From a virus: a stretch of DNA of 14,875 nt. Made by a program: the position numbers and the translations under genes. Under the pieces are notes generated by a model. It did not search any database. It saw nothing but the letters and a program-made list of their open reading frames with translations, and was not told the origin of the DNA. The stretch is taken from UHGV virus genome UHGV-1730466. One strand, given 5' to 3'. Shown one piece after another: positions 3-6,538 of this stretch; the stretch's first letter is position 1, and the number at the start of each line of letters is the position of its first letter.

Positions 3-239
3 ATGGGTGAGCCTCAAAGGGTTGAGTATGACGGCAAGTATAGCTATCACGTATGGTGGTCAGTAACCAGCACGGTAGGTTTTACATACATGGATGTTGA
101 AGAGTTATCCCCTTCAAGGGTTATCGCAAAGTTTGATAACTGCATCCTAAAAGAATGGAAAGATCGCAGTAAGGCAAAGTCTGTATACAATACAATCACA
201 CACAGTTCACCAGGTACAGCGATTAAAGATTTCAATTAG
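3..239 (+). CDS. Hypothetical protein, 78 aa; possibly the 3' part of a gene that begins before the window
   Basis: ORF in track; the ATG sits at nt 3 so the true start may lie upstream; followed by a hairpin plus T-run at 246-268. No motif recognised. Confidence 0.3.
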   Translation: MGEPQRVEYDGKYSYHVWWSVTSTVGFTYMDVEELSPSRVIAKFDNCILKEWKDRSKAKSVYNTITHSSPGTAIKDFN

Positions 240-245
240 CAAAAC

Positions 246-268
246 GCCCGGCTAATCCCGGGCTTTTT
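246..268. terminator. Rho-independent terminator hairpin (gcccgg / ccgggc stem, then TTTTT), shared by convergent genes
   Basis: Stem 246-251 pairs with 258-263, loop ctaatc, T-run 264-268 on the plus strand; the reverse complement is also followed by a T-rich stretch. Confidence 0.55.
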
Positions 269-935
269 CTTGCTCGCTATTTTCCATTCTTTTTAGTATC
301 TCCATAGCCTCCCTCATTCCATCGTCATAAGCCTTTTTATCCAGTAATACATCTGGTCGTTTTTGTTTGTTTCTCGCTTCTGGCGGCGTTTTAGCACGTA
401 CTGCGGCCCTATATCCGGTCATTGTCATGTTCCACGCTTCTGATTCGGATAATCCCAGGTGAGCCACGGCAGAATAAACATACTCCAGAACATCGAATAC
501 AGGTGTGTAGCCACCATCTTGCGGTTGTTCTGCCGCCTTGTTTTCCGGTCCGTCGCCAATGAGTCCATGAAAGAGAAGATGTTTCGCAAGTGTGATAACG
601 TCCTCAACGGGAATAATCCCATATCTTAACTTCAACTTCCCGCTCAGGGTGATCTCGCATGTGCCTATCAGGTGCGATATGTCGCTATCTGTGCACGCTT
701 TTAATACCAGCATGGATGTTTGTACCATCTCACCATAACACCGCGCCAGAATGCGATTGCGAAGCTCTGGATCTACTGGCAATCTGTTGGGGTATTTGCC
801 GCCATGAACAATGGCGAATGCCTGCACCAGGTCGATACTATTCTCTATCTTCGCCATAGCTGCAAAGGATGGAGTAAACACATAACTAACTCCGGCAACC
901 GTGATGGCGCACTGCCCAATCTTGATGTGGAACAT
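252..935 (-). CDS. Hypothetical phage protein, 227 aa (a tail assembly chaperone is possible from position only)
   Basis: Long ORF on the operon strand downstream of the putative tail tube gene; no diagnostic motif recognised; charged C-terminal tail. Confidence 0.5.
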   Translation of the reverse strand: MFHIKIGQCAITVAGVSYVFTPSFAAMAKIENSIDLVQAFAIVHGGKYPNRLPVDPELRNRILARCYGEMVQTSMLVLKACTDSDISHLIGTCEITLSGKLKLRYGIIPVEDVITLAKHLLFHGLIGDGPENKAAEQPQDGGYTPVFDVLEYVYSAVAHLGLSESEAWNMTMTGYRAAVRAKTPPEARNKQKRPDVLLDKKAYDDGMREAMEILKRMENSEQEKARD

Positions 936-969
936 GCTTTACTCCTTATTTTGTGATCTGCATCGCACT

Positions 970-1013
970 TTTATACAAAATGGCTTCCATTCATGAATGA
1001 CATTTTGTATAAA
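970..1013. promoter_or_regulatory. Palindromic site in a divergent intergenic region (putative operator)
   Basis: tttatacaaaatg (970-982) is the exact reverse complement of cattttgtataaa (1001-1013); the 18-nt spacer contains the 7+7 palindrome tcattca/tgaatga; lies between the start of the minus 227-aa gene (935) and the plus membrane-protein gene (1052). Confidence 0.4.
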
Positions 1014-1051
1014 GGAGCCAAGCAAAGAGATGTCGGGTTTAACAGGATTAG

Positions 1052-1369
1052 ATGGGGTGGTTTATGTTATACATGATTGGTTTTATCGGTATGCTGGTTA
1101 CCTTTATCGTTGCTGTAAACAACAAAGTAAACTGGTTTCTGGCATTGATTGGGTGCCTTGTGTTCTGGCCTGGTGTATTAATCTACGCGCTCTGTGCCAA
1201 TAAATGCGTGTTTAAGAGCCTCGCCGAAGCAAGAATGTGGGTTGACGCTGAATACCCTGACGCAGATGCGAAACTGAGAAACAGAGTGTCAATGTTCATG
1301 GTTCGCGAGGTCCGCAATAACAAAGACTTGATGGATTTGCCAAAACGCTTTCCTGAACTGAATAAATAA
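1052..1369 (+). CDS. Small membrane protein with two predicted TM helices (moron-like; opposite strand to the structural operon)
   Basis: ORF in track; hydrophobic stretches MLYMIGFIGMLVTFIVAV and WFLALIGCLVFWPGVLIYALCA followed by a charged C-terminus; an alternative start is the ATG at 1064, preceded by GGGGTGG; terminator directly downstream. Confidence 0.5.
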   Translation: MGWFMLYMIGFIGMLVTFIVAVNNKVNWFLALIGCLVFWPGVLIYALCANKCVFKSLAEARMWVDAEYPDADAKLRNRVSMFMVREVRNNKDLMDLPKRFPELNK

Positions 1370-1384
1370 GGAGCGCAAGCAGAA

Positions 1385-1408
1385 AAGGGGCTGAATGGCC
1401 CCTTTGTT
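1385..1408. terminator. Rho-independent terminator (aggggc / gcccct stem, then T-rich), between convergent genes
   Basis: Stem 1386-1391 pairs with 1398-1403, followed by ttgttgttt; sits between the plus gene stop (1369) and the minus gene stop (1411). Confidence 0.5.
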
Positions 1409-1410
1409 GT

Positions 1411-1887
1411 TTATGCGGCAACCGGATCGGTTACAGTTACCTGGCCCGCGCTTTCGCACTCAATGGACCAGGTTGTGACATCATCGTGCGGTGCCTCTTC
1501 TTCGAAAGATGTGCAAAGGAATGGACCCTCAGTCACATCGGTGGGAGTGACGATTTTTAGCCACACGTATGGCTGATTTCCGGTAGCAGTGCCCGGTGAC
1601 ATTACATGACGCTTTAGTTCTTTCTGGTTGTGTAGAGCATCACTACGTGATACGCCGTCGCCGGAGAAAGAAATAGATTTGTAAGTAACCAGGGATTCTT
1701 TGGTATAGTCGGCGGATTTATCAGCGGTGGCGTCTGCGGTTTCCCATTCTACGGAAAGCGTTTTGCCGCGCATCATGCCTAACGCTTTATATGCTTCTTG
1801 ACCAGGTTTCGCATTAGGGCAAGCGATAGCAAAGAATACAGCAACGTCACGGCCTGTAAATGAGCCATTTTTGCAAGTCTCAGACAT
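1411..1887 (-). CDS. Putative major tail (tail tube) protein, 158 aa
   Basis: Size, composition and position after the gp10-like and tail-completion-like genes in a siphovirus-type order; no strict motif, so the assignment is positional. Confidence 0.4.
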   Translation of the reverse strand: MSETCKNGSFTGRDVAVFFAIACPNAKPGQEAYKALGMMRGKTLSVEWETADATADKSADYTKESLVTYKSISFSGDGVSRSDALHNQKELKRHVMSPGTATGNQPYVWLKIVTPTDVTEGPFLCTSFEEEAPHDDVTTWSIECESAGQVTVTDPVAA

Positions 1888-3275: not shown

Positions 3276-3662
3276 TTACATCCTCCCGCTTTTACCTATC
3301 CACAGACCAGCGTGTGCGGTGTTTTGTGGGTCTGCCGGAATTAGTTCTGCTGTACAGTGATTCTTATCAAGGGAGTAAAGCAACGAGTAGGCTGCCTTCC
3401 ATTTCTGATTGAAATCGACATATCGGTATGACTGGCTTGCGCCGTTCGTACCAGTATGCGAGGAAACGTATTTGTTAGCCTGGGTTAGTCCTAACAGGCC
3501 AATCAGGTAAAGTTGAATCAATGTTGCAGTGGAGGCCGGATAGTTGGCATCAAGGCATTCGTTAACGCTGTTTGCCTGCTCCACCAGCAAGGATAAGATA
3601 ACGTCTGGCAGGTCAATACCCTGGCTTTCAAGATATTCCCGCGCCTGTTCTGTAGTGACCAT
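3276..3662 (-). CDS. Putative gp6-like head-tail adaptor, about 128 aa
   Basis: Track ORF runs 3276-3698 but its first 12 codons overlap the terminator hairpin; the internal Met at 3662 (MVTTEQAREYLESQGIDLPDVILSLL) gives an N-terminus resembling gp6-like connector proteins. Confidence 0.4.
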   Translation of the reverse strand: MVTTEQAREYLESQGIDLPDVILSLLVEQANSVNECLDANYPASTATLIQLYLIGLLGLTQANKYVSSHTGTNGASQSYRYVDFNQKWKAAYSLLYSLDKNHCTAELIPADPQNTAHAGLWIGKSGRM

Positions 3663-3680
3663 TTTGTTTTCTCCACATAC

Positions 3681-3710
3681 AAAAAAAATCCCCGGCATTG
3701 CGCCGGGGAG
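3681..3710 (-). terminator. Strong rho-independent terminator directly downstream of the major capsid gene
   Basis: Minus-strand reading ctccccggc-gcaat-gccgggga followed by eight T; perfect 8-bp GC-rich stem (3689-3696 with 3702-3709). Confidence 0.65.
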
Positions 3711-3727
3711 TCACAGAAACATATCAA

Positions 3728-4792
3728 TTAGGTATTGCTGCCGTAGACCACACCCGAACGACCTTTCATATCACAGGTGATCTGAAGCCCCTCAGCAGAC
3801 ATAATGCGGAAGTTGTAGTTATCGGTCGGCATCATGCGCGGTAACGGAACTACGCCAGTGGTCATGCCAATCAGCGGGGTGATGACGCTGCGACTACGCT
3901 GATAAGCGATAAATTCGTTGCCAGTCAGCGCATAGGTCTGGCGAATATCATCAACCGGGACAAACGGCTTGATAACATCCAGTACACTACCAACAATTGC
4001 GCCATTAACGATGTGTGGGCGTGCTAGGTTAGCCATGATTTCTGGCGATACCCACATTACATCGTATTTAGCCACGAAGTTGGCGCGGGCCAGTTTCCCG
4101 AACTCACCAGTGGTAAAGAATTCAATAATCTTATCGAAAGTCGCGGTGGTCAGGTCGATTTTAGCGACAGTTTTCAGTTTAAGTTGCTGGGTGTTTTTGT
4201 GGTTTTTAATACCCATTGCTTTATGACCATCAACCACGATGTTTTCGTTACCTTCAAGGTAGAATTTAACGCGTGCTTTGTTGAATTTTTTCAGTTTCAG
4301 GAGCTGGCTGTCCAGGGCAAGGTCGATGCCTACAGTATTTAAGCCCTGGGCTAAACGCCAGTTAACACCGTAACCCGCTGCGAACATCGGGATCGGGTCG
4401 CCATCGCTGCCGTATTCGGTGTGATCATAGCCGTGAGGCGCCTGACCATCCATAGACATTACGACTTCATCGTTGATGTCGCCGGATACGCTGTACATTT
4501 TCAGCGTTTTACCGATAGGCAGTACGGTTTGCACACCCATCAGGTCGTTGACGATTTCAATACCGATTTCTTCGGTGTTCAGTTCGATAATCTGGTTGTC
4601 GATTTCTTTCCAGAACTCTTTTGCAAAGCCGCCAACGGCGTTACAGGCAATCATTTCAGCGGTCATGTTCGCCTTGTTTGCTGCAATCATGGCGTCATGC
4701 TGATCGTTGAAGATGTTGCGTTGCGCCCACAGTTCTTTCCAATGGCCCTGCATACGGGCGTTGGTAGCGAGGTTTTCTTTAGTAAAGTACAT
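3728..4792 (-). CDS. Major capsid protein, 354 aa
   Basis: Position after the scaffold-like gene and before a strong terminator; size and composition typical of a major head subunit; family assignment (possibly DUF2184-like) is from memory, not a search. Confidence 0.65.
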   Translation of the reverse strand: MYFTKENLATNARMQGHWKELWAQRNIFNDQHDAMIAANKANMTAEMIACNAVGGFAKEFWKEIDNQIIELNTEEIGIEIVNDLMGVQTVLPIGKTLKMYSVSGDINDEVVMSMDGQAPHGYDHTEYGSDGDPIPMFAAGYGVNWRLAQGLNTVGIDLALDSQLLKLKKFNKARVKFYLEGNENIVVDGHKAMGIKNHKNTQQLKLKTVAKIDLTTATFDKIIEFFTTGEFGKLARANFVAKYDVMWVSPEIMANLARPHIVNGAIVGSVLDVIKPFVPVDDIRQTYALTGNEFIAYQRSRSVITPLIGMTTGVVPLPRMMPTDNYNFRIMSAEGLQITCDMKGRSGVVYGSNT

Positions 4793-5254: not shown

Positions 5255-6538
5255 TTAGAAATAAGTGTTAAAGTCTGGTACTCCGCCTTTTTTACCTTCG
5301 CTTGCTGCGTTGGTTGCCATCGGCGTTGCGTTGCCCAGGGATTTAAACATTGCTTCTAACGCTTCCCCACTTAATGCGTTAGCAACAATTTCGCCGTGTA
5401 CTTTCGCAACTGCGGCGCGTTTTTCTGCTACTTCTTTATTTGCGTTTGCTGCGATCTCTTCTTTAATCGCTTTCTGATTGGTCTGTAATTCTTCTACGCT
5501 TGCCTGTACTGGTTTAAGTGCTTCAGCTACTGCACTGGCGATATTAGCGGATAAACCTTCGTTAATTTCTTTTACCAGTTCGGCGCGTTCTTCTTTGGTC
5601 AAAGGCATGGGATCGTCCTCCGATTTATTGGCCTTAATTTTTTCATTCAGTGAGAAAAGATTGGATAGGTGTTCAGCGAACTGAACGAACCATGATTTAC
5701 TTTCCTCATTGGTTGCAAGCTCGCCATTATTGAGAATTATTTTATCAGCCTGTTTTTCATACGTGCAAACTTGAGCATTTTCGGCATTAGTAGCAATAGT
5801 CACTTCTTTATCAGTGAAGTCCACGACATAGACATAATCTGCATCGGGGAACAGTTTACGCGCCGCTTCCTCAAGTTGTCTTTCAAGCGTGCGATAGCTG
5901 TTTTCTTTCATTGCCACCGCCATTAACGGCTTCGCCTGGTCAGTGTTAACCATCAGGCCAACGCCCTGTTCAGGCGATGCGGCTGGCGGTTCATGCAGTA
6001 AGATGGCGTCATGGTCAATCGACATGATTTTGACAACGCTGTCAGCACCCTGGGCTTTCATCTCTTCAGTAGCTGGCATACGCTGACGATATACGGCAAC
6101 AGATGACCAGATCGGATCTTTGCTTTCGCCTTTTTCCAGCGCTTCCAGTCGGCTTAATAATTCGCGTCCTTGTTCTGAATGGCTGGCGGTTTCAACATCC
6201 ACCCATTTTTCCACATAAACACGATTGCCGCGTAATTCAACATTTCTGTTCCACGCTCCACAAAAGCCAATATTCAGACCTTCCGGGCTAAATGCGGAAA
6301 CAAATTCACCGTCAACCGTAGGATGGCCCAGCGGTGCGAGTGTGCCTTCCAGTGACTGATAATTAGCAATGATTTCAGCTTCCGGGTAATATTCACGATT
6401 CATAACGATATTGAAGGGCAACGTATACGACGGGACTACAATGTGTTCGCGCCCGTTATATGTTTCCCGGCGGATGGTATTAGCGGTTAATTTGGTATTA
6501 ACCTGAATCAATTCTTTACTCACGGTTTTTACTCCCAA
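5255..6538 (-). CDS. Putative prohead scaffolding / protease protein, 427 aa
   Basis: N-terminal globular part plus a long Ala/Glu/Lys-rich C-terminal region (LTKEERAELVKEINEGL...AEKRAAVAKVHGEIV) typical of scaffolding proteins; position between minor head and capsid genes. Confidence 0.55.
   Translation of the reverse strand: MGVKTVSKELIQVNTKLTANTIRRETYNGREHIVVPSYTLPFNIVMNREYYPEAEIIANYQSLEGTLAPLGHPTVDGEFVSAFSPEGLNIGFCGAWNRNVELRGNRVYVEKWVDVETASHSEQGRELLSRLEALEKGESKDPIWSSVAVYRQRMPATEEMKAQGADSVVKIMSIDHDAILLHEPPAASPEQGVGLMVNTDQAKPLMAVAMKENSYRTLERQLEEAARKLFPDADYVYVVDFTDKEVTIATNAENAQVCTYEKQADKIILNNGELATNEESKSWFVQFAEHLSNLFSLNEKIKANKSEDDPMPLTKEERAELVKEINEGLSANIASAVAEALKPVQASVEELQTNQKAIKEEIAANANKEVAEKRAAVAKVHGEIVANALSGEALEAMFKSLGNATPMATNAASEGKKGGVPDFNTYF

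Follow-up and report, generated by a model that had tools for sequence, protein, structure and literature searches.

A probable moron cassette encoding an orphan two-helix membrane protein behind a repeated control module in the tail operon of an mEpimmI-group coliphage

Morons are stretches of extra DNA between genes that are adjacent in related phages (Juhala/Hendrix, summarised in PMC3594210); further marks are an own promoter, an own terminator, a differing base composition, and expression from the repressed prophage (PMC3594210). The moron product gp15 of phage HK97, a protein of the inner membrane, prevents genome entry of superinfecting phages (PMC3594210), and SieA of phage P22 is likewise an inner-membrane exclusion protein (PMC10883804). 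Exclusion has also been shown experimentally for the lipoproteins Lpp021 and Lpp010 (Negrete-Mendez et al., 2025; PMC11893012), the latter of which excludes lambda and phages of the mEpimmI group (PMC11893012). This group comprises recently described Nus-dependent, non-lambdoid temperate coliphages from human faeces, which were reported to be as frequent as lambdoid phages in human faecal Escherichia coli isolates (PMC11893012). Here, we describe a probable moron, a small plus-strand gene with its control region at positions 936–1410 of a 14,875-nucleotide (nt) stretch of the UHGV virus genome UHGV-1730466 (the window, i.e., the whole stretch of DNA that was analysed). An earlier reading made from the letters alone (the sequence-only reading) had proposed that this interval holds a moron-like cassette flanked by terminators, with a gene for a protein with two transmembrane (TM) segments. 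In megablast comparisons the window showed 85–89% identity to mEp013, mEp515, mEp021, mEp010, mEp044, mEp554, and MagusPhagus and, judged from sequence, the source phage is a temperate siphophage of the mEpimmI (mEp021-like) group.

HK97 gene 15 (Juhala et al., 2000; Cumby et al., 2012) is comparable to the gene in the window as a small extra gene that a temperate E. coli siphophage carries in its tail operon, near the chaperone/tape-measure junction, with its own terminator, a small inner-membrane product, and no counterpart in close relatives. It differs in that gp15 has 62 amino acids and one TM segment and its gene shares the strand of the tail genes, whereas the gene described here encodes 101 amino acids with two predicted TM segments, is antisense, and lies one gene earlier, at the tube/chaperone junction. 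The Lpp lipoproteins belong to the same phage family and are also encoded by opposite-strand accessory genes inside the structural cluster, with related motifs upstream of the type-C gene of mEp044, but they are lipoproteins rather than polytopic proteins, are encoded after gene J, have direct instead of inverted upstream repeats, and are unrelated in sequence. SieA, a phage-encoded integral inner-membrane protein that acts on the ejection conduit, was adopted as the mechanistic model, although it has no sequence or fold likeness to the protein in the window and is encoded in the immunity region, not in a tail operon. Another inner-membrane protein preventing the injection of DNA is Imm of phage T4.

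The locus consists of the following elements:
252–935, minus strand: gene of a DUF6246 protein of 227 amino acids (PF19759, E = 8e-47; weak Phage_TAC_11 match; phrog_791), one flank of the interval
936–1380: insert of about 440 nt in the tube/DUF6246 gap (slot A), delimited by alignment with five relatives
1064–1369, plus strand: coding sequence of the two-TM protein, 101 amino acids; the longer open reading frame (ORF), 1052–1369, has 105
1384–1405: bidirectional intrinsic terminator, common to the convergent tube gene (minus strand, tail UUUUCUGCUU) and two-TM gene (plus strand)
1411–1887, minus strand: gene of the tail tube (major tail) protein (PF06199, phrog_853), the other flank

The gap between the tube and DUF6246 genes spans 936–1410 (475 nt) in the window. 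In the GenBank genomes of mEp013, mEp021, MagusPhagus, mEp554, and mEp044 it measures about 45–95 nt, contains no gene, and holds just a terminator and a ribosome-binding site. In the alignment, homology to mEp013 ends at the DUF6246 start codon (935) and restarts at about 1380, immediately before the terminator hairpin; mEp515 is about 434 nt shorter over the gap according to megablast. Among 43 IMG/VR contigs of the family, the gap could be scored in the 36 in which both flanking genes were readable, and it was shorter than 100 nt and free of genes in every one of them. The slot-A gene was found solely in the window and in five metagenomic contigs, and its homologues with 72–100% identity occupied the same gap in the same orientation in all contigs examined. 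The G + C content of the insert (42.5%) differs modestly from that of the DUF6246 gene (47.7%), the tube gene (49.5%), and the structural block (48.4%). The ribosome-binding site of the DUF6246 gene, AAGGAG, falls within the left edge of the insert. Given the short gap of the relatives, the insert of about 440 nt is an add-on, which supports the moron reading, and 936–1380 very probably is an independent accessory cassette of the moron type. Extra DNA between adjacent genes, a terminator, and a distinct, if only modestly so, base composition are the moron marks that were found here. The proposal of a moron with a plus-strand gene opposite to the structural operon is supported by the empty gap in relatives, the lower G + C content, and the variable slot, and the gene's absence from this gap in five GenBank relatives and 36 contigs shows that it is no conserved part of the tail module.

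The same comparison bears on the idea that the two-TM protein truly belongs to the tail or to the DNA delivery machinery, for instance as a helper of assembly or ejection that associates with the membrane. The sole support for this idea is the location between tail genes, together with distant homologues that adjoin the tape-measure gene. It conflicts with the lack of a homologue in mEp013, mEp021, mEp515, and mEp010, whose virions function, with the orientation opposite to the late operon, and with the different slots used in different genomes, so that we consider such a role extremely improbable. Presence of the gene showed no correlation with the sequence type of the tape-measure protein.

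The insert has the perfect 10-nt inverted repeat AAATAAGGAG at its two ends (942–951 and 1364–1373). It was considered as a scar of recombination or inversion and rejected: it is partly kept in the related contig L007 and absent from L006, and is probably due to chance or to resemblance to a ribosome-binding site. In an ENA contig that has the 100%-identical gene (L008, 1–560), an inverted DUF6246 fragment is seen at the contig end, probably an assembly artefact.

The ORF at 1052–1369 is a real gene under purifying selection. The ratio of nonsynonymous to synonymous substitution rates (dN/dS; Nei–Gojobori) is 0.08–0.19 against two homologues, the frame is kept in a subfamily of only 38% identity with 25 invariant columns, mostly in the second TM segment (TM2) and its cytoplasmic edge, and the ribosome-binding site and start are conserved. 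Since the homologues start at the residue corresponding to the ATG at 1064, with GGGGTGG or GTGAGG in front, the product probably has 101 amino acids; the two-TM ORF of the sequence-only reading therefore stands, although its length of 105 amino acids does not. That the ORF is spurious and the region a non-coding spacer might be suggested by its small size, its hydrophobicity, and the lack of a database family. This is contradicted by the low dN/dS, the frame kept across divergent subfamilies, and 13 homologue cluster representatives (six at 72–100% identity) in a set of 5.8 billion proteins, and has an even smaller probability than a tail function; both alternatives are effectively excluded.

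Hydropathy maxima (Kyte–Doolittle, 19 residues) of 2.19 and 2.29 were found at residues 3–21 and 29–47, and the two hydrophobic segments are separated by NNKVN. An AlphaFold model based on a 13-sequence alignment contained helices at residues 2–23 and 28–49 and short C-terminal helices. The predicted architecture thus comprises TM1 (approximately residues 2–23), a loop of 4–5 residues, TM2 (approximately 28–49), and a charged helical tail of about 55 amino acids with 12 Lys/Arg and 9 Asp/Glu. The motif WPxVLIYALCxNKxxFK in the TM2 region is invariant in the subfamilies. According to these predictions, the protein probably resides in the inner membrane with both termini in the cytoplasm, and the strong conservation of TM2 and its cytoplasmic edge suggests an intramembrane partner.

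No significant match of the protein was obtained in Pfam, PHROGs, PADLOC, or NCBIfam. A HMMER profile search of 1.84 billion representatives retrieved three sequences, namely the two known subfamilies and a 54-amino-acid fragment. The best E-value in a PDB sequence search was 10, Foldseek with the AlphaFold model gave no match below E = 0.4 in BFVD and PDB, hhalign against HK97 gp15 gave a probability of 0.8% and thus no detectable homology, and no confirmed relative was found in the GTDB species-representative genomes. Of 5,426 complete E. coli genomes compared at megablast sensitivity, none contained the slot-A gene and three contained the version found in the second slot described below (slot B). 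The homologue search that had been suggested for the 105-amino-acid protein thus yielded relatives, though none as a conserved member of the tail module: among 50,697 phage records, tblastn detected homologues solely in mEp554 and mEp044. These are 38% identical and lie between the DUF6246 and tape-measure genes (slot B), antisense to the tail operon. In mEp554 (L004, PP180005.1), the annotated coding sequence at 3498–3806, mEp554_92, is on the strand opposite to the homologue, and the real gene is therefore unannotated there. Within the databases searched, the two-TM family is an orphan confined to the mEpimmI group.

Hairpin terminators at 246–268 and 1385–1408 had been proposed to bracket the cassette. 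On the DUF6246 side the relevant elements are:
3–239, plus strand: 3′ part of a slot-B cargo gene cut by the window edge (lipoprotein family c4, phrog_18614)
246–263: bidirectional terminator hairpin, located where the slot-B cargo gene (plus strand) and the DUF6246 gene (minus strand) converge with their ends

Both sites are indeed terminator-like. The site at 1384–1405 is a GC-rich hairpin with a T-rich tail behind it on the plus strand, and RNA folding of 1370–1420 gave −23.7 (plus) and −17.7 (minus) kcal/mol; for 236–285 the values were −15 and −19 kcal/mol. Fold z-scores of the two segments ranged from −2.3 to −3.5, and eight terminator-like sites were found in 2.4 kb versus 2.3 expected. 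However, neither terminator is private to the cassette. The hairpin at 1384–1405 is conserved in GenBank relatives without the insert and annotated there as a terminator on the tube strand. It is therefore the tube gene's own terminator, of which the cassette uses the other face. The hairpin at 246–263 likewise occurs in relatives; it ends the plus-strand gene 3–239, lies outside the slot-A cassette, and insulates it from slot-B transcripts.

Upstream of the two-TM gene, the insert carries a module of about 110 nt, which comprises a TGTGATC box, the palindrome TATACAAAATG-N18-CATTTTGTATA, and a short leader with the ribosome-binding site. In the window its parts are:
952–967, plus strand: CRP-like box TGTGATCTGCATCGCA, matching 9 of 10 core positions
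970–1013: palindrome TTTATACAAAATG-N18-CATTTTGTATAAA; the candidate −35 lies next to the left arm, and the candidate −10 is part of the right arm
985–1013, plus strand: candidate sigma-70 promoter with −35 TTCCAT (2/6) at 985–990, a 17-nt spacer, and −10 TATAAA at 1008–1013

The palindrome has perfect 13-bp arms (970–982 and 1001–1013), which extend to 32-nt arms at 78% complementarity, and a fold z-score of −4.25. With at most one mismatch, the 11-mer arm has four matches in the window versus 0.49 expected, and the two exact ones are the arms themselves. The palindrome is exactly conserved, with fixed spacing, in 54 copies from relatives, including the sequence upstream of the slot-B gene in mEp044. 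A pattern search found it in every related locus and in the 43 IMG/VR contigs, where it always points away from the tape-measure start codon. In an alignment of 37 distinct modules, TGTGATC, CT.TTT, both 11-mer arms, GGCT, and AAAG were invariant or nearly so and length did not vary, whereas the 18-nt spacer within the palindrome did in sequence. The CRP-like box is the sole match to TGTGA-N6-TCACA with at most one mismatch in the 14.9-kb window; nearly every copy of the module has an identical TGTGATC half, at a fixed distance to the palindrome. The palindromic putative operator of the sequence-only reading consequently is far beyond chance expectation, but it turned out to be half of a family-wide module of about 110 nt and not a cassette-specific element.

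The module provides a common denominator for two cargo sites. In the relatives seen, it sits upstream of the tape-measure gene (in L007, slot B keeps a remnant), and in the window a second copy is located in slot A. Irrespective of the cargo, it precedes the ribosome-binding site and ATG of the tape-measure gene or, in slot A, of the DUF6246 gene by 17–21 nt. L006 carries the module in both slots, L007 in slot A only. In slot B of L007 (2470–2530), the left end of the module (TTTTGTAATCTGTATCTCTATT) is fused straight to the terminator, and this remnant is therefore a deletion scar of a cassette that slot B once held. The module in both slots of L006 and the combination of slot A and remnant in L007 therefore indicate duplication into slot A, followed by deletion from slot B in one lineage.

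The cargo genes, obtained by clustering the plus-strand ORFs called from the module up to the following backbone gene, all lie behind the module on the plus strand:
28–29-amino-acid peptide, plus strand
signal-peptide protein of 116–165 amino acids, plus strand
lipoprotein family with a VasI domain (PF11319) of the type VI secretion system (T6SS), plus strand
lipoprotein family of the window gene 3–239 (phrog_18614), plus strand
35-amino-acid peptide with a single TM segment, plus strand
two-TM protein, plus strand
three small soluble proteins, plus strand

Most of this cargo is directed to the envelope, i.e., the two lipoprotein families, the signal-peptide protein, the single-TM peptide, and the two-TM protein. 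In slot B the 35-amino-acid peptide always precedes the two-TM gene, which stands alone in slot A. As a side observation, the gap between the DUF6246 and tape-measure genes is a hot spot for cargo, with varied combinations in all family members (e.g., L012, L016, and L052).

The predicted transcription start of the candidate promoter in the window lies at about 1020–1021, and the centre of the CRP-like box (959.5) is 60.5–61.5 nt away from it. A CRP site approximately 61 nt upstream of the start is the geometry of class I CRP-dependent promoters such as lac P1; by this likeness, the box at about −61 may possibly place the module under CRP control. In slot-B modules the order after the left arm is one base, TTCACT or TTTACT (26 of the 37 distinct module sequences), 17 nt, and TATAAA in the right arm. 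A corresponding layout, TATACAAAATGG-A-TTGACT-17-TATATT, is found after cI in mEp044, where the 12-mer TATACAAAATGG lies directly upstream of a near-consensus early promoter (TTGACT-17-TATATT, 10/12); a 19-mer at this site is exact in 40 IMG/VR contigs. Because its geometry is the same as that of the early promoter, we read the module as a putative plus-strand promoter with a start near 1020 that would serve the cargo genes.

The palindrome itself could act as an operator, as two divergent promoters with common arms, or as a hairpin in the late mRNA, and covariation does not decide among these roles because both arms are invariant. An RNA structure as the explanation of the palindrome was rejected, the arms being invariant and the stem extensions uncompensated, and an Rfam scan returned just sub-threshold noise such as miRNA hairpins. 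An operator for CI was also rejected: at the early promoter the 12-mer is single and not part of a dyad, and the cI-proximal region has different dyads.

These features touch on the alternative that the insert is mainly a regulatory duplication, in which the module works on the minus strand or in both directions and serves the late genes for DUF6246 and the tape-measure protein as an internal promoter, processing site, or stabilising hairpin, with the ORF as a passenger. The constant distance of 17–21 nt to the next late gene regardless of cargo is in keeping with such a function, as are the strong terminators preceding both genes, the minus-strand −10 (TATAAA) that the left arm offers by symmetry, and a hairpin whose folding in minus-strand RNA is just as good (−19.7 kcal/mol, z = −3.3). 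On the other hand, the minus-strand −35 (TTCGTT/GTCGTT) is worse than that of the plus strand (TTCACT/TTTACT), L007 lost the slot-B palindrome yet keeps the tape-measure gene directly behind the DUF6246 gene, the ORF is under purifying selection with a conserved ribosome-binding site and start, and a stabilising hairpin lacks covariation support, its arms being invariant. We therefore regard a mainly regulatory insert as improbable and favour the reading of the module as a promoter of the cargo genes.

The strand of the two-TM gene, its own control region, the common terminator, the company of envelope-directed cargo, and the known exclusion proteins point, by analogy, to an inner-membrane factor that would be expressed from the prophage. 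In the proposed scheme, the module would drive one gene antisense to the late operon, with transcripts stopping at the bidirectional terminator of the tube gene. Since the late operon is silent in the lysogen, the cassette could be transcribed there by the host RNA polymerase, possibly with the help of CRP bound at about −61; in the lytic cycle, its expression should be dampened by late transcription running head-on. The product would be a 101-amino-acid hairpin in the inner membrane with a tiny periplasmic loop, a near-invariant TM2, and a helical tail of about 55 amino acids in the cytoplasm. In the lysogen, it may act at the inner membrane to keep out the genomes of superinfecting phages, disturbing the tape-measure/ejection conduit or the membrane partner of that conduit in a manner similar to HK97 gp15 and P22 SieA. 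Superinfection exclusion as the function of the protein is a tentative proposal drawn from these precedents, whereas the account as a whole, a moron cassette with a second module copy and a prophage-expressed inner-membrane protein that excludes phages, is in our view somewhat better than an even bet.

Several observations weigh against this account. The −35 in the window is poor (TTCCAT, 2/6) and the −10 lacks the conserved final T; a consensus promoter scan passes over 985–1013 because position 6 of the −10 is an A. The palindrome might function in the late minus-strand mRNA and not for a cargo promoter. According to the positive-inside rule the topology is not clear-cut, because the loop between the helices holds one or two Lys residues, and the structural model is of moderate confidence (mean pLDDT 69). 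The 35-amino-acid peptide is missing in slot A, where the protein may therefore function in another way or lack a part. Finally, comparisons with PADLOC, HK97 gp15, PDB, and BFVD revealed no sequence, profile, or fold likeness to exclusion or defence proteins, and the protein is therefore not classed as a member of any characterised exclusion family and is said only to be one that may work like them.

The same cassette might have another role, its product being a membrane-active effector of the abortive-infection or holin type or a small modulator of an inner-membrane protein of the host (e.g., a transporter, sensor, or envelope-stress component), to some other advantage of the lysogen. Class II holins, such as S21 of phage 21, are encoded in the lysis cassette and have a dual-start motif with a charged residue. 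The two-TM protein resembles them, and also many small membrane regulators, in its gross shape, being small, with two TM segments, probably both termini inside, and a charged C-terminal tail. The conservation of TM2 and its cytoplasmic edge, which suggests an intramembrane partner, would fit such a role as well, and the diverse co-resident cargo, including the VasI lipoprotein, implies that the slot is not dedicated to phage exclusion. As a holin, however, the gene would be misplaced: it lies on the other strand, about 12 kb from Rz and outside the lysis cassette (about 13.6–14.9 kb), away from endolysin and Rz. The N-terminus MGWFMLYM contains no charged residue and thus no Lys-containing dual-start motif, and there is no holin match in Pfam or PHROGs and no match in PADLOC. 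Moreover, the sole experimentally characterised opposite-strand cargo in the phage family is an exclusion lipoprotein. We consider a role of this kind possible, if less likely than exclusion.

An extended and rather speculative version of the exclusion proposal takes the module as a portable, host-controlled, possibly CRP-controlled, symmetric bidirectional promoter that would drive changing envelope-directed genes for protection of the lysogen, with the two-TM proteins as a new inner-membrane exclusion family. Under this doubtful assumption, each arm TATACAAAATG would act as an upstream element in one direction and provide the −10 TATAAA in the other. The module would thus have spread to at least two places of the tail operon, and motifs akin to it lie at the Lpp site after J. 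The type-C Lpp gene after J in mEp044 is a homologue of Lpp010 and is preceded by a TGTGATCT box and TAYACRAAATG repeats. Other occurrences of the 11-mer were recorded in their own right. It is enriched in mEp044 (L065), with nine matches at no more than one mismatch in 34.8 kb versus 1.17 expected, and sites were located at 10517–10558 and 17940–18018 in L065 and at 9850–9930 (minus strand) in L066. It forms a second inverted pair, which encloses the CRP-like sequence TGTGATCAGCATCACG; another copy abuts the early promoter after cI, and a direct pair with the TGTGATCT box lies upstream of the Lpp exclusion lipoprotein gene. The same 11-mer arms, separated by a 27–28-nt spacer, also occur around a textbook promoter (TTGACT...TATAAT) in unrelated AT-rich viral contigs (L013, L017, L018, L030, L046, L048, L057, L058, and L061), where a gene starting MEN... 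lies downstream; this may represent convergent use of the same palindromic promoter design.

The remainder of the window represents the lysis-to-tail part of the genome. Every backbone gene is on the minus strand, including tail terminator and completion genes and the following:
13664–14134, minus strand: Rz (lysis gene)
11814–12314, minus strand: TerS
9827–11314, minus strand: TerL
8378–9769, minus strand: portal protein
6529–8436, minus strand: Mu-F-like head morphogenesis protein of 635 amino acids (PF04233 and PF14890 Intein_splicing)
3728–4792, minus strand: DUF6260 capsid-region protein

The DUF6246 gene occupies the slot expected for the tail assembly chaperone. The Mu-F-like protein has 635 amino acids here versus about 314 in mEp044 and contains an intein domain; an intein has therefore been inserted in this head gene. 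Two HNH_3 endonuclease ORFs were also identified. One (11298–11801, minus strand) is wedged between TerS and TerL, which adjoin in mEp044; the other (14138–14644, minus strand) combines an HNH and an AP2 domain and adjoins Rz. Both look like homing-endonuclease insertions.

Morons are a known kind of element; the orphan membrane protein is new, and a modest further novelty lies in the duplicated module with swappable envelope-directed cargo. The accessory genes of mEpimmI phages are almost wholly unannotated, and two cargo slots in their tail operon behind one conserved module have now been mapped, which also corrects the public annotation of the mEp554 homologue called on the wrong strand. 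The module is a compact promoter/operator element whose regulator may be CRP, a phage factor, or neither. Should the reading as a bidirectional platform be true, the two-TM proteins would constitute a previously unrecognised inner-membrane exclusion family restricted to mEpimmI phages. As an orphan membrane-protein family that moves between slots, they are an easily cloned candidate for a function in exclusion or lysogenic conversion.

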